A DNA stretch of 64,000 nt from an uncultured virus (IMG/VR IMGVR_UViG_3300025470_001263) (Duplodnaviria; Heunggongvirae; Uroviricota; Caudoviricetes), in IMG/VR virus record IMGVR_UViG_3300025470_001263; one strand, written 5' to 3'. A program made the position numbers and the translations under genes. The notes under the pieces were generated by a model that did no database searches, was not told the origin of the DNA, and saw nothing but the letters and a program-made list of their open reading frames with translations. Positions 1,114-60,497 of this stretch are shown here, in pieces (the first letter of the stretch is position 1; each line of letters begins with the position of its first letter).

Positions 1114-1114
1114 T

Positions 1115-4808: not shown

Positions 4809-4810
4809 TT

Positions 4811-10530: not shown

Positions 10531-10544
10531 AAAATTAAATACCG

Positions 10545-11993: not shown

Positions 11994-11995
11994 AT

Positions 11996-14034: not shown

Positions 14035-14630
14035 TATTTGATAATTTTATTATGTATAAAATTTAGGTTACCGGTTTTGTCTACAGATTTATTGAATATT
14101 ATATTATCAAACGTATGATGTGCTAACAATTTATTCTTACTTAATAAACTAAATTCGTGCAAATTCAATTCGGTAATATTTGAATTTTCATTACAATCGT
14201 TATAACTATTGGCACCGAAAACGATACACGAATTATTTTCTCTATATAGACCTTTTATTTTCAAATCCAAATTCAATTGTTCTTCATCGTTTATATAAAT
14301 TCTTAAAAATCTATTTGATTTATGAATTAATTTCAGTTCCATATCAACTCCATTATAAATTATAAAAGGAAATTGAAAATATTCTGATGTTTCATCTTCA
14401 AATTTAACAGTAAAAAAAAGTAAATTTTTATGAATATCCAAACCAGTGTACTTTGGTAATATAGCAAAAACTGTTGCGTTTATATCAACAGTATCTAATA
14501 GAGTACAATTCAAATTAATTTCAAAATCGTGTTCTCCGCTCAAAACTTTTGTTGCAGGTACCTCAGGGAAAGTATCACAAAGTGATGATGGAAAAAGTAT
14601 CCAAGGATCACCCTTTTTTACATGTATCAT
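14034..14630 (-). CDS. LamG-like domain protein (divergent)
   Basis: RIYIN...IVFGA...DKTGNLN pattern resembling 11996..12649. Confidence 0.5.
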   Translation of the reverse strand: MIHVKKGDPWILFPSSLCDTFPEVPATKVLSGEHDFEINLNCTLLDTVDINATVFAILPKYTGLDIHKNLLFFTVKFEDETSEYFQFPFIIYNGVDMELKLIHKSNRFLRIYINDEEQLNLDLKIKGLYRENNSCIVFGANSYNDCNENSNITELNLHEFSLLSKNKLLAHHTFDNIIFNKSVDKTGNLNFIHNKIIK

Positions 14631-18817: not shown

Positions 18818-19022
18818 TTATCGTGTTGTCCTTTTCAGGTTTGTTGAATTTATGAAATTCAGCTAAATAATACTGAACTCTTTCACTCCATTCTGTTTTA
18901 TCAATTTCTTCAAACCAAATAGTTAAAGCTTCTAAAGAATTTCCAATTTTTTCGAGTGCTTTAATTTTTCTTATTTCAAGATCTAACTGTTGTTTTTCTT
19001 TTTCTTCTTTTGTTAAACTCAT
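18810..19022 (-). CDS. Hypothetical protein (70 aa)
   Basis: Overlap-coupled to both neighbours. Confidence 0.7.
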   Translation of the reverse strand: MSLTKEEKEKQQLDLEIRKIKALEKIGNSLEALTIWFEEIDKTEWSERVQYYLAEFHKFNKPEKDNTING

Positions 19023-19873
19023 GTTGATATTATTTTTTTTATTAATTTATTCCATCCTTTATACAAATCGAATTTCGGATATGTTAATCCTTCTTCAAAA
19101 AAATATTTAGAATCGGTTATGTTTACTTTAAATTTACTTTTTGATAAGGCGGTATACATTTTAGCATATTCATCAGAGAAAGCGTATTTTTGACCAATAG
19201 CTGCAACATTTTTTATTCTTTCTATTGATGTTGAATCCCATTTGAAATGATGAACTTGAACTGAAAATTTATCATATGGTGCTATTAACGGGTGATTCCA
19301 ACCCTGCCATCTCCAAGTATCAACACCGTGTATTTTAGCATAATGTTGTCCACTAGTAAGTTCAATATTACCCTTTAAGATACATATTTTGTTTGGACAA
19401 GCATCGCTCATTGGGTATCTAAAAAAACCTGCATTTGGAAATTGTTCCCATATTGATGTATCATTCAGTTCAGGGAAAGTACCATCTAGTCCAATTCTAT
19501 CAATGAATCCACCTCTAACAAGTTCCCAATTATTTTCTTCACAAATTTTTATGATGTTTCTTAAATTATCATAGGGATATAAATGAAATTCATCAATATC
19601 AGCAACTACCCACCAATCATTAGGGTATCTTGATTTAACATCATTATAAAGAAAAGTTACTTTATTCCAATCATAAATCCTATCATTAATAACTTTAACA
19701 ACGTTAACAAAATCATATTGACTGATTTTATCTCTTACTTCATCTTCTATATTAGGATATTTGTCGGTTTTATAAATCACAATTTTTATCTCATCAACAT
19801 ATTGTTCATAATGTTTAATGAAATGAGGAATTAGCTCCGCACCGTGGCCTATAACTGTGATTAATTTAATCAT
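19019..19873 (-). CDS. GT-A fold glycosyltransferase (GT2-like)
   Basis: IPHFIKHY, WWVVADIDEF (DxD), GQH, HHFKW. Start placed at ATG 19873. Confidence 0.7.
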   Translation of the reverse strand: MIKLITVIGHGAELIPHFIKHYEQYVDEIKIVIYKTDKYPNIEDEVRDKISQYDFVNVVKVINDRIYDWNKVTFLYNDVKSRYPNDWWVVADIDEFHLYPYDNLRNIIKICEENNWELVRGGFIDRIGLDGTFPELNDTSIWEQFPNAGFFRYPMSDACPNKICILKGNIELTSGQHYAKIHGVDTWRWQGWNHPLIAPYDKFSVQVHHFKWDSTSIERIKNVAAIGQKYAFSDEYAKMYTALSKSKFKVNITDSKYFFEEGLTYPKFDLYKGWNKLIKKIIST

Positions 19874-19882
19874 AATATAAAC

Positions 19883-19913
19883 CAAATATACGAAAAAAAT
19901 CAATACAAATCAA
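19883..19913 (-). promoter_or_regulatory. Bacteroidota-type promoter (TTG-N20-TATATTTG)
   Basis: Minus strand CTTG...CGTATATTTG, 9 nt upstream of ATG 19873. Further -7 matches at 22505-22512 and 62341-62348. Confidence 0.55.
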
Positions 19914-19922
19914 GAAGGGTGT

Positions 19923-20678
19923 TTATTTTCTTGAAAGAATAGTCAAACCTGTAGATGACGGTTTATTCTTGATAATACCGTGATTAAATAAATTCAATTT
20001 TTGCCATTTTGTTTCATCAATTTCTTGTGAAAACTTAATTGGCCCAGTCCAATCATCGTGGGCTCCTCTATCCTTAACTTCTTGAGTTACAATGAATTTA
20101 TCGGCATAGTCAGGATCGGTATCGTGAATTGAGATGATACCTCTGTCAGAAAGTAATTGTGTGTATAAATCAAAATCTTCTTTTACATTATCATAAGAAT
20201 GTCCTGCATCAATATGTAAATAATCTATTTTAATTTCCTGTTTAACAAAAAAATTATGGAATGCGTCTTCTGTAGTGGTATTCAAAATTCTTGGATGGAA
20301 AGTACTTCTAAAAAATGATTCTTCTTTGAACCAGTCGACTTGTCCGCCAATCCCGTTCATAGCGTCAACAATAAATGTTACACCAATATCCCCCCAACTA
20401 TAATCAGGGTCACCTTCGAATATATGTTGTCCGTGTAAATCAATCCTTGCTTGTGTCATTATACGAGGTATAAAACCACCTCCACTACCTAAACATACAC
20501 ATACTTTTGCCCTCATAAATTGAATGAGTGAATATATTAATAATCCATCACCTAAATGTTCATCAGTGGCTCCGTGGGACCATCTATATGGAACATTTCT
20601 TTGAATCTGATCGCCAAATTCATCTATCTCACTATTATTAGTAATTCGTTCTTTAACAAATTTAGTATCTATTATCAT
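19923..20678 (-). CDS. Class I SAM-dependent methyltransferase (Methyltransf_24-like)
   Basis: CLGSGGG, IDYLHIDAGHSY, GIISIHDT. Confidence 0.8.
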   Translation of the reverse strand: MIIDTKFVKERITNNSEIDEFGDQIQRNVPYRWSHGATDEHLGDGLLIYSLIQFMRAKVCVCLGSGGGFIPRIMTQARIDLHGQHIFEGDPDYSWGDIGVTFIVDAMNGIGGQVDWFKEESFFRSTFHPRILNTTTEDAFHNFFVKQEIKIDYLHIDAGHSYDNVKEDFDLYTQLLSDRGIISIHDTDPDYADKFIVTQEVKDRGAHDDWTGPIKFSQEIDETKWQKLNLFNHGIIKNKPSSTGLTILSRK

Positions 20679-20684
20679 AATAAA

Positions 20685-21419
20685 TTATTTAAACCACTCA
20701 GGTAATTGTTCTAAAGGTGTATATCTATTTATTGGTTTTATTTTATCCTTTAATATATCAAAAAGTTCAGTATCTTTTTGTATAGGAGTTGAAGATGTTA
20801 TAGCTGATATTTGAATCGATATACCTTCACCTGCACCCATAGTTGTACCGATATCGTTTATGTCAATTTTTTCTTTTACTATTTGTAGTTTTTCATACAT
20901 TTCATAAAATCCAACAATATTAAAATCTTCTTTGTTTATAACTAAAAAATGTTCCCATATTAATTCATTTTCACCGAAATTTTCATAGAAACTACTTACA
21001 TATTCTTTATAATCATTCCAATCTGAACTATTTAAATTCAAATCTTTTATATATTGTTTTCTTGTTCTATGATTCAGAAGTGTATCGATATATGATATTC
21101 CTTTTTTAAAAGAATATGTTTTAAAATCTTTAAAAAAATCATAGTTTTTGATATTACTGTCCGCGTCAATTAAAATACAAATATCGTGATGAGGTAAAAT
21201 ATATTTTGGTAATATCATTTTATCGTGATATGATTTTGTTATTCTATGGTGCGGAATAATATGTAGAACTCTATCGTTATAATTTTTAAAATAATTGGGG
21301 TTATTTGTTAGAACATAACAATGAAATCCTCTTTCCAAAATCCTTTGAACTTTATGTTCGGTACCTTTGAAATATTTTTCATCACCAAAACAGAATATAC
21401 CAAAGCCCATGTTATTCAT
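20685..21419 (-). CDS. Putative GT-A fold glycosyltransferase
   Basis: YVLTN...HDK...CILIDAD (DxD), plus gene context. Confidence 0.5.
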   Translation of the reverse strand: MNNMGFGIFCFGDEKYFKGTEHKVQRILERGFHCYVLTNNPNYFKNYNDRVLHIIPHHRITKSYHDKMILPKYILPHHDICILIDADSNIKNYDFFKDFKTYSFKKGISYIDTLLNHRTRKQYIKDLNLNSSDWNDYKEYVSSFYENFGENELIWEHFLVINKEDFNIVGFYEMYEKLQIVKEKIDINDIGTTMGAGEGISIQISAITSSTPIQKDTELFDILKDKIKPINRYTPLEQLPEWFK

Positions 21420-21428
21420 AAAAAATAA

Positions 21429-22064
21429 TTAATATGCATAAATACCAACGTGTCTTATTTCCATACTCAAAACCGTATCGATATAGATTTTATATTCTAA
21501 GTCTCTTAATTTTCTTTGTAAACTAAAATCTTCACCTAACCAATCTTCCGTTTCATTTTTATATTCAAATTCGAAATAAGGTTTTGATAGTTTATTGAAT
21601 ATATCTGTTTTCATTAACATACAACCCATACCAACACCTTGCACTTCAACTAAATCATTTTGTTCTTTCATCATTAACCAACTATCCCAATCATTTATAT
21701 CAGTATAAGCAACTGTTCTCAAAGGTTTCGATCTTTTCATATAATTGCAAGCAACAATATCTTTATTATGCGCTAATAATCGATTAACAATTGTGGATGG
21801 AAACATCATATCGCTATCCAACCATAATACATAATCAGCATTTATATTTTGAGCATTTTTTATTAAATTTTCCCTTTGATTCAATAATATTGTACTACTA
21901 TCAAAAAACAAATTAGAGTCAATTCCTGTTTCTTGCAATGTCTTTATTAATTCAGCTAAACAAAATGCAAAGTGTGAATGAACGTTATCTCTAGTTGGGA
22001 CTAAAATGGCTAATTTAATTTGTTTTCCGTCCCATATTGTGCTTTCATATATAGATTTACTCAT
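21429..22064 (-). CDS. GT2-like glycosyltransferase
   Basis: ILVPTR, REN, WLDSD, GMGCML, GEDFS. Confidence 0.8.
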   Translation of the reverse strand: MSKSIYESTIWDGKQIKLAILVPTRDNVHSHFAFCLAELIKTLQETGIDSNLFFDSSTILLNQRENLIKNAQNINADYVLWLDSDMMFPSTIVNRLLAHNKDIVACNYMKRSKPLRTVAYTDINDWDSWLMMKEQNDLVEVQGVGMGCMLMKTDIFNKLSKPYFEFEYKNETEDWLGEDFSLQRKLRDLEYKIYIDTVLSMEIRHVGIYAY

Positions 22065-22501
22065 AATCCAGGTATATTGTTAGATATTTTAGTTTCTTGT
22101 GAAGTTACGTTTCTACCTATCTCGATTAATTCTTGAGTTCTTTTAATCACTAATTTGAAATCTGATATTGGTAAATTACTTATTATTTCATATGTTTTTC
22201 TATCAAAAAAACCCGTGGTAAGAATATCAATAGCTCCCCTTTTGGCATATTTTTCGATAAAAGCCATTCTTGTTATTTCAAGGTCATTATTCAATAACCC
22301 TTTCAATTTTTTGAAATCGTGTTTGAGAAATATTTTGTTTAATGTGATGTATTCACTATTCCAACGACTACTAAAAAGACAAAGAAAATTTAACCATTTG
22401 AGTCTATTCAAAAACTTTATTAATTTTTCTTTATCAAATTCAATATCTTTCCATATGACATGTTCTAATTCATAAGGTGATGTTGATTTATTAATTTTCA
22501 T
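22061..22501 (-). CDS. Hypothetical protein
   Basis: ATG at 22501 directly follows a TATATTTG element; coupled to the downstream GT. Confidence 0.65.
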   Translation of the reverse strand: MKINKSTSPYELEHVIWKDIEFDKEKLIKFLNRLKWLNFLCLFSSRWNSEYITLNKIFLKHDFKKLKGLLNNDLEITRMAFIEKYAKRGAIDILTTGFFDRKTYEIISNLPISDFKLVIKRTQELIEIGRNVTSQETKISNNIPGL

Positions 22502-22536
22502 ACTCAAATATATGAAAAAAAAATGAAAAAATAAAA

Positions 22537-22769: not shown

Positions 22770-25700
22770 TTATTTAATTTTCGCCTCTAAAGCTTCAATT
22801 CTTTTTAATAATTCTTTATTGGTTTCAATTAATAAAGCAACCATTTTTTCGTATTTAACTGCCTTATAACCATTGTCTCTTGTTATTACTAATTCAGGTA
22901 AAACAGCTTCAATTTCTTGTGCTATAACCCCGATATCGTGTCCTTCATATTGATGTGCACCTTCTGTAGGAATCCAATCAAATGTATAACCACCAATTTG
23001 TTTCAATATATCTAAAGAACCTGAAATTGTCAATACATTTTCTTTCAATCTACTATCTGAAGATGAATATGCGATAACGTCACCTGTGAATGTACCTGCA
23101 CCAGTTACAAACAACGGTATAGATGATCTTAAAGATGAACCATCATCTGTTACAGATGAGTTAGTAACAGTTGTTGATGTAGCAAATTTAACTATAGTGT
23201 TAGCAACCCCTGATACAGTAACTGACGTTCCTGAAGAACCTGATGAACCACTAGAACCACTCACACCTGATGAACCACTAGAACCTGATGTTCCTGAAGA
23301 ACCTGATGAACCTGATGAACCTGATGAACCTGATGAACCGTTAGCACCATTCACACCTGAACTACCACTTGTTCCTGAAGTTCCAGAAGAACCACTTGAG
23401 CCTGAAGACCCACTTGAACCACTAGATCCAGACGAACCCGAGGTACCTGAACTTCCACTAGTTCCTGAAGAACCCGATGAACCACTTGAACCAGAAGAAC
23501 CATTTGAGCCTGATGTTCCTGAAGAACCACTTGAACCAGAAGAACCATTTGAACCTGATGTTCCTGAACTTCCTGAAGAACCTGAGCTTCCAGATGAACC
23601 TGACGTTCCACTAGAACCACTTGTTCCACTTGAACCCGAAGAACCAGATGTTCCTGAAGTACCTGAAGACCCACTTGACCCACTTGAACCAGAAGAACCA
23701 CTTGAACCACTCGTTCCACTTGTTCCTGTTGAACCTGATGTACCTGAACTACCTGAAGAACCACTTGAACCAGATGAACCCGAACTACCTGATGTGCCAG
23801 ATGTTCCAGAAGAACCTGAAGAACCACTTGTTCCACTAGTTCCCGATGAACCGCTCGAACCTGAAGAGCCGCTTGTGCCTGAAGAACCAGATGTTCCACT
23901 CGTTCCTGATGAACCGCTTGATCCTGATGTTCCAGATGTTCCACTTGTACCTGATGTACCACTGTAACCTACTGCACCTGCTAAACCAACTGACCAATCT
24001 GAATGTGAACCACTACCTACAGCTATTTCAACTGTTGCTGTAAATGCACCTGTAGTTGAGTTATAACTTGTTAATCTTGCTTCAATGTAGTTTGTTGTAC
24101 CTGATGAAGCTGAAGATGAAAGTACCACATCTTGACCAATAGTATAAGCTAATCCTGCATCACCTGTAAATGATATTGTTGAACCACTTACAAGTCCTGT
24201 TATATTAATTGCACTTGTTGATGTTGTTGTATATATACTACCCGAAGACCCTGAAGTTCCACTTGTACCTGAAGTACCTGAAACCCCTGATGTACCCGAA
24301 GAACCAGAAGAACCACTTGTACCAGTAGAGCCTGAAGAACCTGAACTACCTGATGAACCTGAACTACCAGATGATCCCGAGGTGCCACTTGTTCCTGAAC
24401 TTCCTGATGTTCCACTTGTTCCTGAAGAACCCGAAGAACCACTAGATCCTGATGTTCCTGAGCTTCCCGATGAACCACTTGATCCTGATGTTCCTGATGT
24501 ACCCGTAGAACCTGAACTACCCGATGTTCCTGAAGTACCACTTGAACCACTTGTTCCACTTGTTCCTGCACTTCCTGAAGAACCGCTCGTTCCACTTGAA
24601 CCCGAAGAACCTGATGAACCACTAGATCCTGAAGAACCAGATGAACCCGATGAACCTGATGTTCCTGAAGAACCATTAGAACCTGAACTACCTGAAGTAC
24701 CTGAAGTACCACTTGAACCACTTGTTCCACTTGTTCCCGAAGAACCATTTGAACCAGATGAACCTGATGTTCCACTTGTTCCTGAAGAACCAGAAGAACC
24801 TGATGTTCCACTTGTTCCTGAAGAACCAGAAGAACCTGATGTTCCACTTGTTCCGGCCGAACCTGAACTACCAGATGAACCTGAAGTTCCACTCGATCCT
24901 GAACTACCAGAAGAACCTGCAGAACCCGAAGTACCTGAAGAACCTGATGATCCACTTGTACCTGAAGAACCATTAGAACCCGAAGTACCTGATGTACCAC
25001 TTGTACCTGAACTACCTGAAGTACCTGATGTTCCAGAAGAACCTGAAGACCCACTTAATCCTGAAGAACCCGAACTACCAGATGAACCTGAAGTTCCACT
25101 TGTTCCTGATGTACCACTCGTTCCACTTGTTCCAGAAGAACCACTTGTACCTGAAGAACCTGAAGTTCCTGATGTACCTGAACTACCTGATGAACCCGAA
25201 GAACCATTAGATCCTGAACTACCTGAAGTTCCACTAGTTCCTGATGTTCCACTAGTTCCTGAAGTTCCTGATGACCCACTAGAACCCGAAGACCCACTTG
25301 TTCCGCTAGTTCCTGAAGAACCATTTGAACCTGATGTTCCTGAAGTACCTGTTGAACCAGATGTACCGGAAGAACCTGATGTACCAGAGGACCCTGAACT
25401 ACCTGATGAACCTGAAGTTCCAGAAGTTCCTGAACTTCCTGAAATTCCACTAATTCCTGAAGAACCACTTGTACCATCAGTTCCTGAACTACCTGATGTT
25501 CCACTAGTACCTGAAGAACCTGATGAACCTGAACTTCCGCTTGAACCCGAAGAACCTGAAGTTCCAGAAGTTCCTGAACTTCCTGAAGTTCCACTTGTTC
25601 CTGAAGAACCGCTTGAACCAGATGTACCACTTGTACCGGACGTACCAGACGTTCCTGAAGTACCACTTGTACCTGAAGAACCACTTGATCCTGAAGTTCC

Positions 25701-28700
25701 TGAAGAACCTGAACTACCACTCGAACCTGAAGTTCCACTCGTTCCTGAAGAACCGCTCGTGCCTGAAGAACCTGAAGAACCACTTGTTCCTGAAGTACCT
25801 GAAGAACCACTTGTTCCTGAAGAACCGCTCGTTCCACTTGAACCTGAACTACCTGATGAACCACTAGTACCACTTGTTCCTGTTGAACCCGAACTACCTG
25901 AAGTACCGCTTGAACCATCTGTTCCGCTTGTTCCGGATGTTCCGGATGTTCCTGAAGAACCTGAACTACCAGATGATCCACTTGAACCCGAAGAACCCGA
26001 ACTTCCACTCGTACCTGAAGTACCTGACGTACCTGAAGGTGCGTTGAATGATGTAACTAAATAAGAATAGTTAGCGTTACCTTCAGTGTAAAAAGTAAAT
26101 GAAATGCTTGAACTATTATTATTTGTTGAATATAATTTTGTATAAATTCTATCTGTTGGGTCTAATACCGCTCCTGCATAGAATGAATCAAAATAGTAAG
26201 AATATGGTGTAGATGTTGTTTGTAAAGTTACTGTTCCTGTTGTAAATAATAAAGTTGAAGCTCCACCAATTGAATATTTGTATACTTCTGCATATAAATC
26301 TATACTTGACGCATTTGCATCAGTGCAAGTAATGTTTAAATTGAAACCCCAAACACCACCAGGTATTAAACTAACATCAGGAGAACCTGTATCTGTTGCG
26401 AATGTTTCCCATAAATGTGCACTTGTATTACCATTTGTTGAAACAACTAAGCTTTGTTGAGATACTGTAGTTGCTGTTGTAGACATTTCTTTATATGTCG
26501 GACTACCAAATGCTGTATTAGTATTATTTGATTGGTTGAAATAATATATTTGACCTCCTGAGATACCATCTCTACCATTTTGACCTGAGGTACCGCTTGT
26601 TCCACTTGTTCCATCAGAACCATTTACTCCCGATACACCACTAGAACCACTTGTTCCTGCAGAACCCGAAGAACCTGATGTTCCACTTGTTCCACTTGTA
26701 CCCGAGGTTCCTGATGTTCCAGAAGAACCTGATGTTCCAGAAGAACCACTTGTTCCACTTGAACCACTTGAACCTGATGTTCCAGAAGAACCTGATGTTC
26801 CTGAAGAACCACTTGTACCTGAAGAACCTGATGTACCGCTCGTACCAGATGTACCTGATGAACCTGAGCTACCACTTGAACCACTTGTTCCACTTGTACC
26901 AGATGTACCTGAAGTTCCACTTGTTCCTGAAGAACCTGAACTACCTGATGAACCTGAACTACCTGAAGAACCTGATGAACCACTTGTTCCTGAAGTTCCC
27001 GAAGAACCACTCGAACCCGAAGTTCCAGAAGTTCCTGACGTTCCACTTGTTCCTGATGTACCACTTGATCCTGATGAACCACTTGTTCCTGAACTACCGC
27101 TACTTCCACTTGAACCAGATGTTCCGCTCGTTCCTGAAGAACCACTTGTTCCTGAAGAACCTGAACTACCACTTGTACCCGAAGTACCAGATGAACCCGA
27201 ACTACCAGATGAACCTGATGTTCCTGAACTTCCTGAAGTACCATCACTTCCTGAAGTACCACTTGTTCCATCGCTACCACTAGTACCTGAAGTACCATCA
27301 CTACCGCTTGTTCCTGAAGTACCTGAAGTACCTGAAGTACCGCTTGAACCTGAAGAACCTGATGAACCATCTAAACCTGCTTCACCTGCTAAATTCAAAT
27401 ACCAAGTACCGAAACCATTACAGTTTGCACCATCGCAATGACCCATTTGTAAATTACCTTGTAATAAACCTGTTCCTGGATCATATGATGTTACAACCCA
27501 AGTGGCATATATGTTAGTATTTCCTTGATATATTGTTATAAATGTCTGTCCTGCTGTATATGATAAACCTGTTCCAACACTTGAACCGAAAGTTGGTTGA
27601 GTTACAGTAATAGAAGCAAAAAATGTGCTTGAATATGAAGATGATGTACCGCTTGAACCACTAGTCCCTGAAGAACCCGATGTACCACTTGTTCCGTCTG
27701 AACCACTTGTTCCTGAAGTTCCGCTTGTACCTGCTTGAGCGATTAAATCCCAAGATATTAATGAATCAGGCGTTTCATTTTGATTATCGGCGTTTGCAAC
27801 ATACGAACTACCATTGTAATTTACAACATCGTATCTTGCATAATATAAACCATAACTAAACGCACCTCTTAATGTAAATCCACTACCTGAAGTACCGTCA
27901 CTACCTGAAGTACCGTCACTACCTGATGAACCTGAAGAACCACTAGATCCTGAAGTTCCGTCGCTACCACTTGAGCCACTTGTACCGCTTGAACCACTTG
28001 TACCATCACTTCCGCTTGTTCCACTTGAACCTGAACTTCCGCTTGTTCCTGCTGAACCACTAGTACCTGAAGAACCGCTACTACCGCTTGAACCACTAGT
28101 TCCTGAACTACCAGAAGAACCCGATGAACCGCTACTACCGCTTGTACCTGAAGTTCCGTCACTTCCACTAGTACCTGAAGTACCATCAGTTCCGTCTACT
28201 CCTGAAATACCTGAAGAACCACTAGTACCATCGCTACCACTTGTTCCTGAAGATCCATCACTACCTGAAGTACCATCACTACCTGATGTACCACTTGAAC
28301 CATTACTTCCACTAGTTCCTGATGTTCCACTTGTTCCGTCTGATCCTGAACTACCCGATGTTCCTGATGAACCACTAGTTCCTGAAGAACCTGAGCTACC
28401 ACTTGAACCTGATGTTCCACTTGTTCCTGACGATCCATTACTACCTGAAGTACCGCTAGTTCCATCAGAACCATTTGTACCTGAAGTACCGTCTGTTCCA
28501 TCAATACCCGATATACCTGAAGAACCACTTGTTCCTGAAGAGCCGTCACTACCTGATGTACCACTAGTACCATCACTTCCTGAAGAACCCGAAGAACCTG
28601 AACTACCAGAAGAACCTGATGTTCCTGAACTTCCTGATGTACCATCACTACCGCTTGAACCACTTGTACCTGAAGAACCAGATGAACCACTTGAACCACT

Positions 28701-31022
28701 TGTACCTGAAGAACCAGATGAACCACTAGTTCCATCGCTTCCTGATGTACCACTAGTTCCATCAGAACCACTTGTTCCTGAAGTACCATCACTACCACTT
28801 GTACCTGAAGTACCATCACTACCACTTGTACCTGAAGTACCATCTGAACCACTAGTACCACTAGTACCATCACTACCTGATGTACCCGAAGAACCTGAAT
28901 AACCAACGGCACCATCTAATCCAACTGACCAATCTGAATAACTTCCCGAACCAATTCCTCTTTCGATTGAAGCCACAATTGTATTGGAACCTGAATAATA
29001 TGTAACAATTTTTGCTATCATATAATTGTTAGCATCGTGTGCGACAATTATATCTTGAGCTGTTGTGTATGCTAAATTTGTATCATTTACAACAAAAGTA
29101 AGTGTATCACCACTTATATTTGATATTGTTAAATTTGACGAGGATGTTGTTGTGTATATACTACCACTTGAACCACTTGTGCCTGATGTACCATCACTAC
29201 CACTTGTGCCTGAAGTTCCATCTGAACCGCTTGTTCCATCACTACCACTAGTTCCGCTTGTTCCATCACTACCTGATGTGCCACTTGTTCCATCACTACC
29301 GCTTGTTCCTGATGTTCCAGAGCTTCCTGAAGAACCTGAAGTTCCACTTGAACCACTAGTACCATCACTACCTGAACTACCTGAAGTTCCTGAAGAACCA
29401 CTCGTTCCTGAAGATCCGCTTGTACCAGAAGAACCTGATGTACCCGAAGTCCCGTCACTACCACTTGTACCTGAAGAACCATTAGAACCACTTGAACCTG
29501 AAGTACCACTTGAACCTGAAGTACCGCTAGTACCGCTTGTTCCGTCGCTACCCGATGTTCCGCTTGTACCATCACTACCTGATGTACCATCCGAACCACT
29601 AGTGCCGCTTGTACCATCAGAACCAGACGTACCCGAAGTACCATCTGTACCATCTACGCCTGAAATACCTGATGAACCACTTGTTCCATCACTACCTGAT
29701 GTTCCGTCACTACCACTAGTACCACTAGTTCCGTCAGAACCACTAGTTCCATCAGAACCACTAGTTCCACTTGAACCATCACTTCCTGATGTACCATCCG
29801 AACCACTAGTACCGCTTGAACCATCGCTTCCTGATGTACCATTCGAACCACTTGTTCCGCTTGAACCATCAGAACCAGAAGTACCTGAAGTACCGTCACT
29901 TCCTGATGTGCCATCCGAACCACTTGTTCCGCTTGAACCATCAGATCCGCTAGTACCACTTGTTCCATCACTACCTGAAGAACCAGATGTTCCTGAACTT
30001 CCTGATGAACCTGAGCTACCTGAAGTCCCACTTGAACCACTTGTACCAGATGTACCATTCATACCCGATGTTCCTGAACTTCCTGAAGTTCCGTTTGTAC
30101 CATCCGTACCACTTGTACCATCAGTTCCAGAAGAACCTGATGTTCCATCTGTTCCAGATAAACCTGAAGTACCCGAAGTTCCATCAATACCACTTGAACC
30201 TGAAGAACCGCTACTACCGCTTGTTCCTGAAGAACCCGCTGAACCTGAGGTTCCTATACTTGATAACCAAGTAGAACCATCATAACGATATACGTTATTA
30301 TCATTTGTATTGTAATATAATGAACCCGTATATTCTCCAACTGGTTCACTTGAATATAAAGGAAGTTTTAAATATTTATCCGCATCAATATTTCCTATTA
30401 CTTGAGACGCTGAAACATAACCAGTAGCAGTTAAATTACCGTTGATATTTTGGTCACCATTGAATGTATTTCCTGTTCTCAAATCGGCAAAAACTAAAAA
30501 ACTATTTTGATCGTAAATTGTTTTACCAGTTGGAATGTATAAATTACCATCACCCCAGAAGTCCCATTCTAAAAAAGAACCACTATCAGGACCAAATCCA
30601 TATAAACCTACACCAACATTAGTTTGGTTAACCCAAACATATGTATTGTGATTATAATCAAGTCCTAACCAAGGATACGAACCACTAGCACTATTCGCGT
30701 GTAAATAAAAACCACCATCAATGTCTAATTTACCTAATTCGATACCATCATCATCTCCAAAAAAAAGACTATTCGATAGATGTAATGCACCACTAATATG
30801 ACCATCACCAATTAAATTAATACTACCACTTATTGAAAGCGATCCAGTATTATATGTGTTAGTTGTAATTATTTCTTCAATTGATGGTGCAATTGAACCT
30901 GACTTAGCAAAATAAAGCTTACCGTCAGTGGTGTTTATTGATAATTCACCTAATTGTAATTGGTCGTTAGTAGGGATTTTACCCGCTACCGAACTTCTAC
31001 GAAGTTTAATAATTTGAGCCAT
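22770..31022 (-). CDS. Giant fibre protein (2750 aa): N-terminal attachment domain, Gly-X-Ser repeats, internal modules, C-terminal peptidase S74 intramolecular chaperone
   Basis: IKLRRS...GELSINTTDGKLY N-terminus; (GTS/GSS/GSD)n; SSDSRLKENV...GVIAQEIEAVLPELV...VKYEK plus a coiled-coil tail. Confidence 0.85.
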   Translation of the reverse strand: MAQIIKLRRSSVAGKIPTNDQLQLGELSINTTDGKLYFAKSGSIAPSIEEIITTNTYNTGSLSISGSINLIGDGHISGALHLSNSLFFGDDDGIELGKLDIDGGFYLHANSASGSYPWLGLDYNHNTYVWVNQTNVGVGLYGFGPDSGSFLEWDFWGDGNLYIPTGKTIYDQNSFLVFADLRTGNTFNGDQNINGNLTATGYVSASQVIGNIDADKYLKLPLYSSEPVGEYTGSLYYNTNDNNVYRYDGSTWLSSIGTSGSAGSSGTSGSSGSSGSSGIDGTSGTSGLSGTDGTSGSSGTDGTSGTDGTNGTSGSSGTSGMNGTSGTSGSSGTSGSSGSSGSSGTSGSSGSDGTSGTSGSDGSSGTSGSDGTSGSDGTSGTSGSDGSSGTSGSNGTSGSDGSSGTSGSDGTSGSDGSSGTSGSDGTSGSDGTSGTSGSDGTSGSDGTSGSSGISGVDGTDGTSGTSGSDGTSGTSGSDGTSGSDGTSGTSGSDGTSGTSGTSGSSGTSGSSGSNGSSGTSGSDGTSGTSGSSGTSGSSGTSGSSGTSGSSGSDGTSGSSGTSGSSGSSGTSGTSGSDGTSGTSGSDGTSGTSGSDGTSGSDGTSGTSGSDGTSGTSGSSGSIYTTTSSSNLTISNISGDTLTFVVNDTNLAYTTAQDIIVAHDANNYMIAKIVTYYSGSNTIVASIERGIGSGSYSDWSVGLDGAVGYSGSSGTSGSDGTSGTSGSDGTSGTSGSDGTSGTSGSDGTSGTSGSDGTSGTSGSDGTSGSSGSSGTSGSSGSSGSSGTSGSSGSDGTSGSSGTSGSSGSSGSSGSSGSDGTSGTSGSDGSSGTSGSSGISGIDGTDGTSGTNGSDGTSGTSGSNGSSGTSGTSGSSGSSGSSGTSGSSGTSGSSGSDGTSGTSGTSGSNGSSGTSGSDGTSGSDGSSGTSGSDGTSGSSGISGVDGTDGTSGTSGSDGTSGTSGSSGSSGSSGSSGTSGSSGSSGSSGTSGSAGTSGSSGSSGTSGSDGTSGSSGTSGSSGSDGTSGSSGSSGSSGSDGTSGSDGTSGSGFTLRGAFSYGLYYARYDVVNYNGSSYVANADNQNETPDSLISWDLIAQAGTSGTSGTSGSDGTSGTSGSSGTSGSSGTSSSYSSTFFASITVTQPTFGSSVGTGLSYTAGQTFITIYQGNTNIYATWVVTSYDPGTGLLQGNLQMGHCDGANCNGFGTWYLNLAGEAGLDGSSGSSGSSGTSGTSGTSGTSGSDGTSGTSGSDGTSGTSGSDGTSGSSGTSGSSGSSGSSGTSGTSGSSGSSGTSGSSGTSGTSGSSGSSGSSGTSGSSGSSGTSGTSGTSGTSGTSGSSGSSGTSGTSGSSGSSGSSGSSGSSGSSGTSGTSGTSGTSGTSGSSGSSGSSGTSGTSGTSGSSGTSGSSGTSGSSGTSGSSGSSGTSGSSGTSGSSGTSGTSGTSGTSGTSGSSGSAGTSGSSGVSGVNGSDGTSGTSGTSGQNGRDGISGGQIYYFNQSNNTNTAFGSPTYKEMSTTATTVSQQSLVVSTNGNTSAHLWETFATDTGSPDVSLIPGGVWGFNLNITCTDANASSIDLYAEVYKYSIGGASTLLFTTGTVTLQTTSTPYSYYFDSFYAGAVLDPTDRIYTKLYSTNNNSSSISFTFYTEGNANYSYLVTSFNAPSGTSGTSGTSGSSGSSGSSGSSGSSGSSGTSGTSGTSGTDGSSGTSGSSGSTGTSGTSGSSGSSGSSGTSGSSGTSGSSGTSGTSGSSGSSGTSGSSGTSGTSGSSGSSGSSGTSGSSGSSGTSGTSGTSGTSGTSGTSGSSGSSGTSGTSGSSGTSGTSGSSGSSGSSGSSGSSGTSGTSGSSGTDGTSGSSGISGISGSSGTSGTSGSSGSSGSSGTSGSSGTSGSTGTSGTSGSNGSSGTSGTSGSSGSSGSSGTSGTSGTSGTSGTSGSSGSNGSSGSSGSSGTSGTSGSSGTSGSSGTSGTSGTSGTSGTSGSSGSSGSSGLSGSSGSSGTSGTSGSSGTSGTSGTSGSNGSSGTSGSSGSSGTSGSAGSSGSSGSSGTSGSSGSSGSAGTSGTSGSSGSSGTSGTSGSSGSSGTSGTSGSSGSNGSSGTSGTSGSSGTSGTSGSSGSNGSSGTSGSSGSSGSSGSSGSSGSSGSSGTSGSSGSAGTSGTSGSSGTSGTSGSSGSTGTSGTSGSSGSSGSSGTSGSSGSSGSSGTSGTSGSSGTSGTSGSSGSSGSSGSSGSSGSTGTSGSSGSSGTSGVSGTSGTSGTSGSSGSIYTTTSTSAINITGLVSGSTISFTGDAGLAYTIGQDVVLSSSASSGTTNYIEARLTSYNSTTGAFTATVEIAVGSGSHSDWSVGLAGAVGYSGTSGTSGTSGTSGSSGSSGTSGTSGSSGTSGSSGSSGSSGTSGTSGSSGSSGTSGTSGSSGSSGSSGSSGSSGTSGSTGTSGTSGSSGSSGSSGSSGSSGTSGTSGSSGSSGTSGSSGTSGSSGSSGSSGSSGTSGSNGSSGSSGSSGTSGSNGSSGSSGSSGSSGTSGSSGTSGSSGSSGSSGSSGSSGSSGTSGTSGSSGVNGANGSSGSSGSSGSSGSSGTSGSSGSSGVSGSSGSSGSSGTSVTVSGVANTIVKFATSTTVTNSSVTDDGSSLRSSIPLFVTGAGTFTGDVIAYSSSDSRLKENVLTISGSLDILKQIGGYTFDWIPTEGAHQYEGHDIGVIAQEIEAVLPELVITRDNGYKAVKYEKMVALLIETNKELLKRIEALEAKIK

Positions 31023-31078
31023 ATGTATGGTTTCCTTTGTTTGTGATATGTATCACGGTTAATAACCTATGTAGGTTA
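31019..31078 (-). promoter_or_regulatory. Three tandem stem-loops with identical UACAUA core in the fibre 5' leader
   Basis: TAACC-TACATA-GGTTA, GTGA-TACATA-TCAC, CCA-TACATA-TGG; the last includes the ATG. Confidence 0.7.
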
Positions 31079-31082
31079 CCTA

Positions 31083-31089
31083 ATAAATA
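31083..31089 (-). promoter_or_regulatory. Putative late promoter motif TATTTAT(A), representative copy
   Basis: Same motif upstream of minus-strand starts at 31387, 33356, 37951, 39383, 46216, 49561, 55932, 57363, 59636 and 61611. Confidence 0.6.
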
Positions 31090-31101
31090 GTTTTATTAAA
31101 T

Positions 31102-31131
31102 AAAAAAGGAAGTTTTTTTAGAACTTCCTTT
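31102..31131 (-). terminator. Intrinsic terminator
   Basis: AAAGGAAGTT...AACTTCCTTT stem followed by a U-tract on the minus strand. Confidence 0.7.
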
Positions 31132-31139
31132 GTGTTATT

Positions 31140-31370
31140 TTAATTTAATTCGATGATGTGATGAATAAAAGGTTTTTTTGGGAGATAATTGTCCTCAGCA
31201 TTCATATTATTAGCAACTACTCTCTGTGTTTTAATGTTAATATATGTATTTGGATTTGATAATGCTTTTATCTGTGCAATAGTGGGATTATCTAATTCGT
31301 GGTGTTGAATTTCTTCTTTAACTTTAATATTATTTTTGTTTATAACAGTTAATTTTACTTTATAATTCAT
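31140..31370 (-). CDS. Hypothetical protein (76 aa)
   Basis: ORF with a TATTTAT motif upstream and a terminator downstream. Confidence 0.55.
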   Translation of the reverse strand: MNYKVKLTVINKNNIKVKEEIQHHELDNPTIAQIKALSNPNTYINIKTQRVVANNMNAEDNYLPKKPFIHHIIELN

Positions 31371-31393
31371 TTTAAATGTGTTTATGATAAATA

Positions 31394-32065
31394 TTAGACT
31401 AAATCAAATAAAATAATTTCTGTTTCTGTATCAGGAAAAATTTGAATTTTTTCTTCTTGTGTAAAACTCAATCCATCGCCTTCGATTAATGGTATATTAT
31501 TAACATTTGATGTTCCTGATATAACATAGAGATAATAATTGCGATTAGAATTCAAATCAAATGTAAAATTTTCATTAAAAATTCCTGATAGAAATTTTGT
31601 ATCTTGTTTGATTGATAATTTGGAAGTAATATCACAAAATTGATTAAGTTTATCTTCTCTTGTGAATTGATACCATTCGTGTATGGGTTCTGTATCGAAA
31701 ACATTTGGTCTAATCCATAATTGTAAATATCTATTTGGATTTTCAGACGCATTTCCTTCTGTATGTTTAATTCCTGAACCTGTGCTCATTCTTTGAACCG
31801 CTCCTGCAGGAATATCTAACGTATTTCCGTGGCTATCTGTGTGTCTACAAACACCTTCAACAACATAACCGAATATTTCCATATTTTTATGTTCGTGAAT
31901 TGGTACATGTCCACCAGGTTGAACTCTGTCATCATTAATAGTCTGTAAATGACTAAAATTCATATAACGTGCATCATAATAAGATGGAAAACTAAACGTT
32001 CTATATGAATTTATCCAACTTGCCCTTGGATTCCCTCGAGTATTTGCTGGTCTATGTATTATCAT
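31394..32065 (-). CDS. Pirin family protein (YhhW-like bicupin)
   Basis: SYRTFSF, INDDRV, HEHKNMEI, HTDSHGN, MSTGSGIKHTE, LQLWI. Confidence 0.9.
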   Translation of the reverse strand: MIIHRPANTRGNPRASWINSYRTFSFPSYYDARYMNFSHLQTINDDRVQPGGHVPIHEHKNMEIFGYVVEGVCRHTDSHGNTLDIPAGAVQRMSTGSGIKHTEGNASENPNRYLQLWIRPNVFDTEPIHEWYQFTREDKLNQFCDITSKLSIKQDTKFLSGIFNENFTFDLNSNRNYYLYVISGTSNVNNIPLIEGDGLSFTQEEKIQIFPDTETEIILFDLV

Positions 32066-32076
32066 AAACAATCAGA

Positions 32077-33342
32077 TTAACACCAATAGTTATCGTTAGA
32101 TTCTATAACAGGGAAATATGGAGTGAATGTTGCAGGGAAATTGAAAGTGCCCATCAAACTTGGATTTGTTGGATCAGTGCCGTAGGTTTGATTTGTCATC
32201 CAATCATTATGACTTAAATCAATCGGGCTCATATATATCTCATCCCCGTCATATTTTAATCTCACTTTACCTGTGGACACTGTACTACCTGCTCCCCAAG
32301 TAACATTAAAAATATAAGAAATACCAATTGAAAGTCCTAAAGAATCATATGAATTTATTACTTGTGTCGTTAAACCACTTGTTATTTGATAATACATATA
32401 TGCATCACCAATACTATTAGTAGAATTATTTGTAAATCCTGATGTACCATTTGGAGTCATAGCATTGTAACCTACATATGTTATATCAGATGGATTTAAG
32501 GTAAATGATAATGCTACACCTATTTTTAAAAACTCAGAACTATTAGGAGTACCTGTACCATCCCAACCTGTAAAAGATGTATTAGATGATTCAAATAAAG
32601 TTAAATCATTAGCTCCAGTAGCATCCGCTATGTCCCAAGCTATACCTAAGTGATTGAGACTAGCACCATTTGCTTCAAAAGTATCGGGTAAGAAATTAAA
32701 TGTTATGAAATTTGAATTTTGTCTAAATGTGATTTGACCGGTATTACCAATTGCTTGTTGTAAATAAGTACCTTTTTCAGTACCCGTTGAATCGAACTCA
32801 TTGACATATATTGCACCTTGTGTTAAAATTAAATTTGGGTCAGATAAACCTGAATCATTTGAACCTTGGGTATTTGGGAATGTAATACTTCCTGAATCCC
32901 AAGCCGGTGAATATCCTAAAGAATCCACATATAATACCCATTCACCTGTTACTCCTGTTGTACTTCCATAAGATGTCCAACAACCATTATTCGCTAACCA
33001 AGTTTGTGCATCGGTTACAGTAGAACCATAACTACCTGAAGACATCCAATTAACTAAATTTAAAAAAGTAGCGTCAGTTAAATCTGTTGATTGATAAAAA
33101 CCAACTGATGCTGATGTTGGTGTAACTCCTACTGGTACAGGTTCGTTGTTACCTGGAACAGGAAATGCTACAATGTAATTATTGGTTTGGTCTGGACTCA
33201 TCCACCATTGAACATCACCATAATTTTGTGAATAATCAATTGATGGGTCAGTTCCAACTGCCAAATTTCCAATTTGTGTTGTATCGGAAATAGGTGAACC
33301 TGGATTAGATGCTATTGGGGTTGTTATATATGATACTGACAT
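32077..33342 (-). CDS. Putative virion protein: shared N-terminal 'WW..PD...WTSY' domain plus variable C-terminus
   Basis: N-terminal ~125 aa homologous to the adjacent ORFs. Confidence 0.65.
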   Translation of the reverse strand: MSVSYITTPIASNPGSPISDTTQIGNLAVGTDPSIDYSQNYGDVQWWMSPDQTNNYIVAFPVPGNNEPVPVGVTPTSASVGFYQSTDLTDATFLNLVNWMSSGSYGSTVTDAQTWLANNGCWTSYGSTTGVTGEWVLYVDSLGYSPAWDSGSITFPNTQGSNDSGLSDPNLILTQGAIYVNEFDSTGTEKGTYLQQAIGNTGQITFRQNSNFITFNFLPDTFEANGASLNHLGIAWDIADATGANDLTLFESSNTSFTGWDGTGTPNSSEFLKIGVALSFTLNPSDITYVGYNAMTPNGTSGFTNNSTNSIGDAYMYYQITSGLTTQVINSYDSLGLSIGISYIFNVTWGAGSTVSTGKVRLKYDGDEIYMSPIDLSHNDWMTNQTYGTDPTNPSLMGTFNFPATFTPYFPVIESNDNYWC

Positions 33343-39442: not shown

Positions 39443-42400
39443 TTAGTATGTACCGCCATCAATTATGTTAGAAAATACTAATGTTCCATCACTGTCCGCG
39501 TAACCTAAAACACTATCTAATGATAATGAACCTGTTGGTAATGGTGTAAAAGCAACTTGACTACCTGAGTTAAGTAACATCACTTGAGATGAAACATTTC
39601 CATAATCAACACCAGTTGTGTCTGTTAAAGTCAAATTACCATCAATATTCAAAGAACCCGATATTGTAAGTTCGTTTGTTGTTGTCCAACCTGATGTTGT
39701 AGGGTTATATTCAAATAATGAATCTCCTGAGGTCCCTGATGTTCCATCTGAACCACTGGTTCCTGAAGTACCATCCGTACCTGAAATACCACTAGTACCA
39801 TCTGTTCCACTTGTTCCTGATGTACCATCTGTTCCACTTGTTCCTGATGTACCATCTGTTCCTGATGTTCCACTTGTGCCGTCAGTTCCAGATGTTCCAC
39901 TTGAACCATCTGTACCGTCTACGCCTGAAATACCCGAAGTTCCAGAAGTTCCATCTGTTCCACTCGTACCCGAAGAACCGTCAGTACCACTTGTACCCGA
40001 AGAACCGTCAGTACCTGACATACCATCAATTCCACTTGTTCCCGAAGTACCGTCTGTTCCACTAGTGCCTGATGTACCATCCGTACCATCAACTCCTGAT
40101 ATACCTGAAGAACCTGATGTTCCTGAAGTACCATCACTTCCACTTGTTCCGCTACTACCATTACTTCCACTACTACCACTCGTTCCCGAACTACCGTCAA
40201 TTCCTGAACTACCACTTGTACCATCAGTACCCGATGTTCCACTTGAACCATCTGTTCCTGAAGTACCGTCTGTGCCACTCGTACCAGACGTTCCGTCTGT
40301 ACCGCTTGTACCGTCGGTTCCACTTGTACCAGAAGAACCATCACTACCTGAAGTGCCACTTGTACCGTCGGTTCCACTTGTACCAGAAGAACCATCCGTT
40401 CCTGAAGTTCCATCAGTTCCACTTGTACCTGAAGTACCGTCACTTCCTGAAGTACCGCTTGTTCCATCTATACCTGATGTACCACTAGTTCCGTCTGTTC
40501 CTGAAGTACCGCTTGTTCCGTTGAATCCAACTGCTCCATCTAAATTGATTGACCAGTTGCTATATGTACCTGTTCCTTGACCTCCCTCAATCACTGCCGC
40601 TAAGAAAATACCTGTAGCAGGGTCATAACTATCAACTCTTGCAATCATATAATTGTTAATATCATATGCTATTATAATATCTTGAGCTGTTGTATAAGCT
40701 AACCCCAATCCAGCAGTGAAAGTAATCGTATCACCGGAAACTGTATCTAAAGTTAATGTTGTTGTTGATGTTGTAGAATATTTGTCACCATTAAGTCCTG
40801 ATGTACCACTTGTGCCACTAGTACCATCAGATCCACTTGTACCTGAAGTACCGTCTGTTCCACTTGTACCTGAAGTACCATCACTACCTGAAGTACCACT
40901 AGTACCATCTGTTCCTGAAGTTCCGTCTGAACCTGATGTACCTGATGTTCCATCACTACCTGAAGTTCCACTAGTACCATCTGTACCTGAAGTGCCACTT
41001 GTACCATCCGTACCACTTGTTCCTGATGTGCCATCTGTACCGCTTGTCCCATCTATACCTGATGTACCACTAGTTCCGTCTGTTCCTGAAGTACCGCTTG
41101 TACCTGAAGATCCGTCAGTACCACTAACACCTGATATACCTGAAGAACCACTTGTTCCTGAAGTTCCATCAATACCTGAAGTACCGTCACTACCTGATGT
41201 ACCACTTGAGCCATCAGTTCCACTTGTACCCGATGTACCATCAATACCACTTGTTCCACTAGTTCCGTCAGTGCCACTTGTGCCTGAAGTACCATCAATA
41301 CCTGATGTACCGTCTGTTCCGCTTGTGCCTGAAGTACCATCTATTCCTGAAGTACCACTAGTACCATCCGTACCACTTGTTCCTGATGTACCATCCGTAC
41401 CGCTAGTTCCTGAAGTACCATCAGTACCTGATGTACCACTTGTACCATCAGTTCCATTAATTCCTGATATACCTGAAGTACCACTTGTACCATCGGTTCC
41501 ACTTGTACCTGAAGTACCGTCTATACCTGATGTTCCACTACTACCGTCTGTACCACTTGTTCCATCTGTACCACTAGTACCACTTGAACCATCAGTACCA
41601 CTAGTACCATCGGTTCCACTTGTACCTGAAGTACCGTCCATACCTGATGTACCTGAAGTGCCATCTGTTCCGCTAGTTCCTGATGTACCATCTGTACCAT
41701 CAACACCTGAGATACCCGAAGATCCTGAGGTACCATCTATACCTGATGTTCCACTAGTTCCGTCTGTGCCTGATGTTCCACTAGTACCATCTGTTCCTGA
41801 AGTACCATCAACACCTGATGTTCCACTAGTTCCGTCAATACCACTTGTACCTGAAGTACCATCTGTTCCACTAGTACCGCTTGAACCGTCTGTTCCACTT
41901 GTACCATCAGTACCTGATGTACCACTAGTACCATCCGTTCCTGAAGTACCATCCGTACCACTTGTACCTGAAGTACCATCTGTTCCTGAAGTACCATTAG
42001 TGCCCGCTTGAGCTATTAAATTCCAGTTACCACCCGGAGGTGCTGAATTCGTATTTAAAACATTTGCAACGTATGAGCTACCATCATAATCAACAACATC
42101 ATTTAAGTAATATGTTGTGAGTGAATCCCAAGTTCCTCTTGATGTAAAACCAAGACCACTTGTACCTGATGTACCGTCAGTTCCTGAAGTACCATCCGTA
42201 CCACTTGTTCCATCAGTACCACTAGTACCACTTGTACCATCAGTTCCGCTTGTTCCATCGATACCAGAAGTTCCGCTTGAACCATCAGTTCCACTAGTTC
42301 CAGACGTTCCATCGACACCTGATGTGCCGCTTGTTCCATCCATACCTGAGGTACCTGAAGTACCGTCAGTTCCACTAGTTCCACTTGAACCATCTGTTCC

Positions 42401-60450: not shown

Positions 60451-60497
60451 TGGTAGTATGTGCGGTTGGTTTGTGTTATAAAAATACTGAAAAAAAA

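Follow-up and report, generated by a model that had tools for sequence, protein, structure and literature searches.

A conserved three-hairpin leader of a phage fibre gene resembles an undescribed RNA control element

The fibre leader and its promoter-like motif

The 64,000-nucleotide stretch of DNA analysed here in full (the window; 34% G+C, no tRNA genes), record IMGVR_UViG_3300025470_001263 of an uncultured virus of the Caudoviricetes, carries on its minus strand a gene for a fibre of 2750 aa (22770..31022), in which a conserved N-terminal module is followed by collagen triple-helix repeats (22 matches) and a C-terminal Peptidase_S74 chaperone domain. The start of this gene lies within a leader (31014..31092, minus strand) that looks like a previously undescribed RNA control element made of three hairpins, P1, P2 and P3. 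Upstream of the leader, a 76-aa open reading frame (ORF) ends with a stop at 31140 (minus strand), and this upstream gene has an intrinsic terminator at 31105..31131 (minus strand), identified by terminator scan and by sequence as AAAGGAAGTT...AACTTCCTTT and then a T-run, so that a new transcription unit would begin at the leader. A promoter-like TATTTAT motif (31083..31089, minus strand) ends 4 nt before P1. Sequence, folding and covariation agree on all three minus-strand hairpins: P1 (31063..31078; TAACCTACATAGGTTA) reads TAACC-TACATA-GGTTA, P2 (31043..31056; GTGATACATATCAC) reads GTGA-TACATA-TCAC, and P3 (31019..31030; CCATACATATGG) reads CCA-TACATA-TGG. Because the TA..TA of the apparent core is itself complementary, each element is a palindrome around a 2-nt centre (CA), and the corresponding RNA hairpins would be UAACCU-ACAU-AGGUUA, GUGAU-ACAU-AUCAC and CCAU-ACAU-AUGG. 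The 3' arm of P3 consists of the start codon (ATG, 31022-31020, minus strand) and the first base of codon 2. A preliminary description of this DNA had listed the three palindromes, and its coordinates, its perfect pairing and its centre-to-centre spacing of 21 and 25 nt all proved correct, as did its placement of the AUG within P3 and of the whole set behind the TATTTAT motif.

Chance does not explain this cluster, which lies far beyond expectation. Palindromes defined by a TAYATA core or its complement and at least 3 flanking pairs number 8 in the window against 2.4 ± 1.4 expected from 100 Markov simulations, and 3 of the 8 fall inside 60 nt; fewer than 1e-5 such triplets would be expected per window, an arithmetic estimate from the simulated palindrome rate. 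The minimum free energy fold of 31095-30990 holds all three stems with ACAU tetraloops at -16.5 kcal/mol (z = -2.0), a value reached by 7 of 200 shuffles. The window has two further 16-nt palindromes whose TACATA core reads on the plus strand: AGGTATACATATACCT, at 17394-17409, lies 14 nt into the minus-strand gene 15990-17423, and ACAAATACATATTTGT, at 6502-6517, lies within the plus-strand gene 6414-7388.

The TATTTAT motif stands in sense orientation within 60 nt upstream of 12 of the 52 window genes (antisense, 2), and likewise upstream of 81 of 374 genes (antisense, 17) in G002, a complete relative of 335 kb, and of 29 of 197 genes (antisense, 12) in G008, a complete relative of 202 kb. On the minus strand of the window, TATTTAT(A/T) is found upstream of the gene starts at 33342, 37934, 39377, 46198 and 49540, and also at 31370, 61598, 55928, 59631 and 21419; in G002 (L087-L103) it is oriented in the same way, with the ATG often just 4-8 nt beyond it. 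The motif-to-ATG distance in G002 peaks at 4-5 nt (26 genes) and is within 23 nt for 67 of the 81 genes, and the leaders of other motif-bearing genes measure 4-20 nt, mostly with no obvious Shine-Dalgarno sequence. This spacing would put transcript starts some 5-6 nt beyond the motif and leave many motif-bearing mRNAs with little or no leader. The fibre gene departs from the pattern, with its ATG 60 nt after the motif and P1 only 4 nt after it. Taken only from the TATTTAT-to-ATG spacing of other genes, the 5' end of the fibre transcript would fall at about 31078-31077, that is, on the first bases of P1; in most homologous leaders, too, P1 starts 3-6 nt downstream of the motif. Two metatranscriptome runs contain small parts of the locus as contigs, and an RNA-library contig of 151 nt covers 30908-31058, which is weak evidence for an RNA form; contigs give no transcript end, strand or level.

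Like the T4-type late promoter (consensus TATAAATA), the motif is an 8-bp AT-rich element on the coding strand upstream of many genes, with no obvious -35 box. The form found here, TATTTATA, deviates from that consensus at two central positions. Unlike the T4-type promoter, it has a motif-to-ATG peak that implies leaderless or near-leaderless mRNAs, and a sigma-70-family gene is present in the same genome (288 aa, regions 2 and 4; 59635-60501, minus strand). Literature searches on TATTTAT phage promoters, leaderless late promoters of Bacteroidetes phages and collagen fibres of jumbo phages turned up no account of the motif.

Conservation and covariation of the three hairpins

With a profile of the fibre N-terminus, 529 relatives were flagged in IMG/VR and 80 of their loci taken further, and a covariance model (CM) named R1, built from 13 homologous leaders of other phages, retrieved the window leader (40.8 bits, E = 0.0014) together with other homologous leaders. 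Among the 34 distinct leaders with an exact TATTTAT, 33 share one plan, in which the motif is followed after 3-8 nt by P1 (arms of 5-9 nt), then P2, and then P3 over the ATG; this count, like those of T-runs and upstream terminators given below, was read by eye from the leader listings. Total leader length varies from about 54 to 91 nt, and the three-part layout is kept although the fibre N-termini are merely 31-70% identical. The stems themselves differ between lineages: P1 is built on GACCTA, GGTACTA, GTAGTA or GTCTA, P2 on GTGATA, GTGGTA, TGGTA, GTTA or GCTA, and P3 on CCATA, or on GACATA where codon 2 begins with T. Since the stems differ, the homologous leaders are not recent copies of one sequence.

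At least three palindromes of the form TA-NN-TA occur in 32 of 64 unique leaders but in only 0.4% of dinucleotide shuffles, and the mean per leader is 2.1 against 0.25 in the shuffles, a more than 8-fold enrichment. In A4, a CM-fitted alignment of 53 distinct rows, 94.0% of the 650 cells are paired, compared with 70.2% in shuffles and 25-57% in slid controls, and double changes are seen in all 13 of its 13 pairs. One P1 pair can also be followed in A2, a structure-blind MAFFT alignment, where it is C-G in 18 rows, G-C in 11 and something else in 1 (n = 30). RNAalifold run on A4 recovers P1 and P3. The preliminary description had staked its proposal on covariation of the stems in homologous leaders, and both the covariance model and the alignments bear this out. 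By these comparisons, the three-hairpin leader is confirmed as real and as conserved with compensating changes in dozens of related uncultivated freshwater phages.

It could still be argued that the palindromes have no function and arose by chance or neutrally, for example through template switching in AT-rich DNA. Such DNA readily yields short palindromes, and 5 of the 8 in the window lie elsewhere, three of these being pure A/T. Against this stand the layout, held constant relative to TATTTAT and ATG at the N-terminal divergence given above, the enrichment over dinucleotide shuffles and the uniqueness of the leader in two complete genomes (see below), so that we regard an absence of function as extremely improbable.

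Pairing of the start codon extends into the coding sequence. A CAT at -7 to -5, complementary to the AUG, precedes 38 of 65 unique starts, and in those 38 the pair between -8 and +4 is C-G in 24, U.G in 7, A-U in 4, G.U in 1 and A.A in 2; a T at the start of codon 2 goes with A or G at -8. The start context CATANATATG is found at a long ORF solely in the fibre gene, in the window as well as in G002 and G008. A start-codon hairpin as a general device of these phages was considered and rejected, as CATANATATG is about as frequent as chance would give and is absent from the starts of all other long ORFs. A leader peptide read from the GTG at 31056 (a 16-codon frame) was also rejected: the frame stops after 7 codons in L005, and the main lineage lacks the start.

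Loops between U-A closing pairs were tallied by main class over 45 unique leaders. In P1 they are AUAU in 30, ACAU in 4, AAAU in 1 and AGAU in 0, besides longer AU-repeat loops; in P2 the same classes count 23, 4, 5 and 2, and in P3 they count 18, 10, 8 and 4. Taken over the family, the consensus reads U[A-N-A-U]A, in which N varies freely and A1, A3 and U4 are conserved in all three hairpins. The window has ACAU in all three of its loops, and the preliminary description had accordingly spoken of an invariant UACAUA core; this identity holds only within the window phage, and the shared ACA reads as a local state within the wider consensus. Even the local population varies, as a 997-nt contig from run X22 differs from the window at 3 of 997 positions, all inside P1 or P2. 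At 31050 the P2 loop changes from C to U, giving a TATATA core in hairpin 2, at 31045 a P2 pair changes from G-C to G.U, and at 31065 an outer P1 pair changes from A-U to A.C.

Sense-strand pairing and restriction to one fibre gene

Palindromes at a late promoter might act as DNA, either as operators for a dimeric DNA-binding protein or as cruciform or hairpin DNA signals. A role of this kind would fit the many copies in which perfect symmetry extends to the centre (TATATA), the spacing of the centres by about two helical turns (21 and 25 bp) and the overlap of P1 with the inferred start site. The centre is nevertheless strand-asymmetric: its dinucleotide is CA in 18 cases, AA in 14 and GA in 6 (38 in sum) against TG in 2 and TT and TC in 0, which favours RNA because a symmetric dimer on double-stranded DNA (dsDNA) would not distinguish the strands. 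Cells that depart from Watson-Crick pairing are of the G.U type in 29 and of the A.C type in 7, a count to which the model itself contributes some bias; of 10 internal mismatches, 6 are T.G or G.T and 1 is A.C, and the natural G-C to G.U variant in P2 fits RNA pairing. The arms change symmetrically and differ completely among the three sites, which points to pairing rather than to a conserved protein half-site, and P3 covers the start codon, some 55 nt away from where transcription is inferred to begin. Together, the evidence favours a sense-strand, single-stranded form, and a DNA-level function seems very unlikely.

In part of the family, P1 may also serve the gene upstream. Eleven leaders with no separate upstream terminator have longer P1 arms and at least 6 consecutive T after P1, so P1 would act there as an RNA terminator for the upstream gene; over all 45 listed leaders, at least 6 T follow P1 in 14, of which just three have an upstream terminator. 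This T-run invites a transcriptional alternative, attenuation or processive antitermination, in which P1 (with a U-run in many lineages) would halt the majority of transcripts, and a factor acting on the hairpins as they emerge would license read-through to the fibre and the downstream glycosylation genes. The agent could be the NusG-like protein encoded in the window (174 aa, NGN and KOW domains; 51323-51847, minus strand) or the RNA itself, as in HK022 put. Specialised NusG paralogues (RfaH, LoaP, UpxY) act through 5' leader elements, and RfaH-ops, the LoaP leader hairpin, the UpxY 5' untranslated region and HK022 put are likewise promoter-proximal leader hairpins of a long structural or glycosylation operon. 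The window encodes a sigma-70-family protein in addition to the NusG-like one, the latter recurs in G002, G003 and G004 (64-68% identity), and same-strand genes are tightly packed after the fibre gene, down to 9697. In the window, however, P1 is followed by TTAACC (UUAACC in RNA) with no U-run, and the terminator scan reports just the 31131-31105 hairpin. No sequence resembling the ops consensus occurs in 31014-31092, and the complete G008 has the leader and no NusG-family match in a search that found NusG in 10 of 14 control genomes. G005-G007 also gave no NusG-family match, these records being just 53-65% complete. NusG was dropped as a required partner on the strength of G008. Antitermination, moreover, has no need of a P3 that covers the AUG, and it leaves both the pairing of the AUG and the covariation with codon 2 unexplained. 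We therefore consider transcriptional control through P1 an unlikely main role for the leader.

The leader is unique to the fibre gene in the window and in the complete relatives G002 and G008. It is the sole match to the model below E = 0.1 in the window and also in G002, where one other place, in L092, reaches E = 0.62, and exactly one match is present in each of 5 further records. The fibre leader is also the sole GC-containing palindrome cluster in G002 and the sole long TATATA-centred palindrome in G008. The genes behind it encode fibres of 266 aa (G008), 1241 aa (G002) and 2750 aa (window), whereas it is absent from the two further collagen-repeat genes of the window (2251 and 1101 aa; 39443-46198 and 46235-49540, both minus strand), each of which has its own TATTTAT and an 18-20 nt leader with no hairpins. 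The leader thus goes with the N-terminal module and not with size or cost, and the rationale given in the preliminary description, control of a very costly protein, does not hold. Two consecutive fibre paralogues are found in five loci (L064, L038, L039, L023 and L029; about 1501-2260 in each), and the leader is on the second only. Both paralogues share the conserved N-terminal module; the first, of about 215 aa, has a plain leader, and the second has the terminator, TATTTAT and the full three-hairpin leader.

Searches outside this family returned little. The preliminary description did not recognise the set as a described RNA motif, and no Rfam family matches the leader: Rfam 15 gave only a chance snoRNA match on the other strand (31481-31544) for window positions 29000-33000 at E up to 10, and two matches for 15 homologous loci at E up to 1, both far below the gathering score (27 of 41 bits just upstream of the L071 leader and 23 of 114 bits antisense across the L011 leader). 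The leader region had no blastn match among 50,697 phage records, tblastn with the fibre N-terminus found just matches of about 40 aa in 5 unrelated phage records, and the N-terminal profile had a single chance-level match (E = 0.29) in a sequence search of the PDB. A CM search of 151 Flavobacteriaceae genomes gave 0 matches and is uninformative, as the positive record G009 was also missed under its stricter filters.

The phages that bear the leader are uncultivated and AT-rich, with related contigs reaching 202-335 kb, and DNA nearly identical to the window is present in freshwater and lake metagenomes. Among genome-collection records, the leader turned up only in one contig of 248 kb that had been binned with a Flavobacteriaceae metagenome-assembled genome, and this one binned contig hints weakly at a Bacteroidota host. 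A 2025 article (PMC12619734) describes sigma-factor-encoding large aquatic phages for which Flavobacteriia hosts are predicted. Besides its three collagen-repeat proteins and the sigma-70-family and NusG-like proteins, the window encodes ClpP and an SbcC-like nuclease. A large set of sugar and glycosyl-transfer genes adjoins the collagen-repeat fibre genes (142-9708, plus strand; 9697-22507, minus strand) and includes NAD-dependent sugar epimerases/dehydratases, a dTDP-sugar 3,5-epimerase, thiamine-enzyme fragments, a 2OG-Fe(II) oxygenase, three radical-SAM-like proteins, a methyltransferase, two GT7 (beta-4-galactosyltransferase-like) proteins with lectin-like domains and other glycosyltransferases. 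This gene content suggests that the phage may hydroxylate and glycosylate its collagen-like fibres.

Proposed function and comparison with known systems

We propose that the leader is a conserved cis-acting structured 5' RNA in which P1 caps the 5' end, P3 closes the AUG and a common factor sets fibre translation, a reading in which we place about as much belief as doubt. Transcription would start a few bases past TATTTAT, so that the mRNA opens directly with P1, which could protect or cap its 5' end; in lineages with no separate upstream terminator, P1 and its U-run would end the upstream gene too. P2 would come next, and in P3 the bases at -8 to -5 would pair with the start codon and with +4. 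The three hairpins would then show the same apex, a U-A closing pair with an A-N-A-U loop, on different, covarying stems, and it is this sameness of apex on unlike stems that suggests one recognising factor. Such a factor could read all three apices, stabilise the weak P2 and P3 and set the use of the fibre AUG, probably by repression.

The predicted stabilities bear on whether a factor is needed. At 37 °C they are -6.1 kcal/mol for P1, -2.5 for P2 and -1.2 for P3, and at 15 °C they are -10.2, -5.2 and -3.3 kcal/mol, respectively; in the main lineage, P2 is a 3-bp stem (GUU-AUAU-AAC) that still covaries. The leader might be a passive structure with no dedicated binder, in which P1 is a 5' stabiliser or insulating terminator and P3 a weak start-codon hairpin that lowers fibre translation or senses temperature, in a host that initiates without Shine-Dalgarno pairing and with a shared loop due to common descent or AT-rich drift. 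The strong rise in stability at lake temperatures, the short leaders of other motif genes (mostly lacking an obvious Shine-Dalgarno sequence) and the terminator role of P1 in 11 leaders are consistent with this. Set against RNA thermometers of the fourU or ROSE type, in which a weak hairpin masks the Shine-Dalgarno sequence or the AUG and melts within the physiological range, P3 is predicted to be weak and temperature-sensitive, and it has no U4-Shine-Dalgarno pairing. As in ompA-type 5' stabilisers and intrinsic terminators, P1 would lie at the inferred 5' end and is followed by a T-run in some relatives; unlike them, the leader has a conserved loop and two further hairpins with the same loop, and P1 of the window lacks a U-run. 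A purely passive role also sits badly with A1, A3, U4 and the U-A closing pair, which are conserved in all three hairpins over 45 leaders although passive hairpins need no fixed loop, with a main-lineage P2 too weak to fold alone that covaries nonetheless, and with an AUG opening energy that is unexceptional. We regard it as possible, though doubtful.

Several observations weigh against the proposed factor-controlled leader. The pair counts come from a structure-fitted alignment of sequences related by descent. RNAalifold gives no consensus structure on the structure-blind alignment A2, because the stems are misaligned between lineages and AU-rich, and on A4 it omits P2 and reaches a consensus energy of just -4.67 kcal/mol. 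The inner A-U pair beside the 2-nt centre is conserved, yet it cannot form in an RNA hairpin; it is better read as loop sequence and would also fit a DNA palindrome. The predicted cost of unfolding the AUG region (-12 to +13) at 37 °C is 3.2 kcal/mol, compared with 0.6-3.2 for eight other motif genes, and since this cost is unexceptional, passive repression would be small. The leaders of L054 (1435-1509) and L057 (1418-1497) keep P1 and P2 and have swapped P3 for an AGGA-type Shine-Dalgarno sequence 9-11 nt before the ATG. Finally, the leader is missing from Proteobacterial homologues of the fibre N-terminus, whose genes, like those of other homologues, begin behind short leaders of the ordinary kind.

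With stems this weak, a loop that is conserved and covariation that persists, something probably stabilises or reads the hairpins. The multivalent RNA-binding-protein operator put forward in the preliminary description thus stands in part: the shared loop on unrelated stems and the weakness of those stems make a factor plausible, whereas the binder itself is hypothetical and the predicted occlusion of the AUG is modest. In a bolder version, a trimeric protein would read the three U[ANAU]A apices, and boldest of all, the unassembled fibre trimerised by its collagen repeats, or its docking module, would close P3 over the AUG autogenously. Three conserved N-terminal domains would then bind their own mRNA, and fibre synthesis would follow virion assembly. 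We consider this a long shot; if true, it would account for four features of the leader: its association with the N-terminal module rather than with gene length, its three sites, its stems of too little stability to act unaided and its single occurrence per genome.

In a comparison with known systems, the logic of the leader appears closest to multi-hairpin leaders of the CsrA type and to start-codon operators of the coat-protein and RegA type. CsrA/RsmA-type leaders likewise have several short hairpins that carry a shared loop on non-conserved stems, with the last over the translation start, and are read multivalently. Their hairpins present GGA (ANGGA), and the last one covers the ribosome-binding site. 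In contrast, the fibre leader has an A-N-A-U loop on a U-A closing pair, pairs the AUG itself rather than the Shine-Dalgarno sequence and belongs to a phage gene; no GGA was found in the loops of the window or of the 45 unique leaders, and no CsrA-like protein was identified. The operators of the MS2 and PP7 coat proteins and of T4 RegA and gp43 likewise involve a hairpin that contains or abuts the start codon, and theirs are read through loop bases. They throttle the synthesis of a structural or late protein and are single hairpins; those of MS2 and PP7, at the replicase start, carry a bulged purine (an A in MS2) and a loop that reads ANYA in MS2 and AUAUGG in PP7. The fibre leader differs from them in its three hairpins, its ANAU loops and its dsDNA phage background, and the stems of the window are perfect, with no bulge. 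Compared in this way, the leader appears to differ from all of those systems in its loop sequence, in how many sites it has and in having the AUG itself paired.

If it is a regulatory RNA, the leader would be an undescribed, widely distributed phage motif with clean covariation and of unusual design, in which three hairpins share one loop and the start codon itself is paired. The phages concerned have other mRNAs that look almost leaderless, and their likely hosts dispense with Shine-Dalgarno pairing. Even on a modest reading, the leader is one more candidate structured phage RNA that can be put to the test. Should the proposed control hold true, it would offer a compact, portable translational control module for Bacteroidota-type systems and a way into the question of how large, uncultivated phages of fresh water adjust the dose or timing of their host-recognition fibres.

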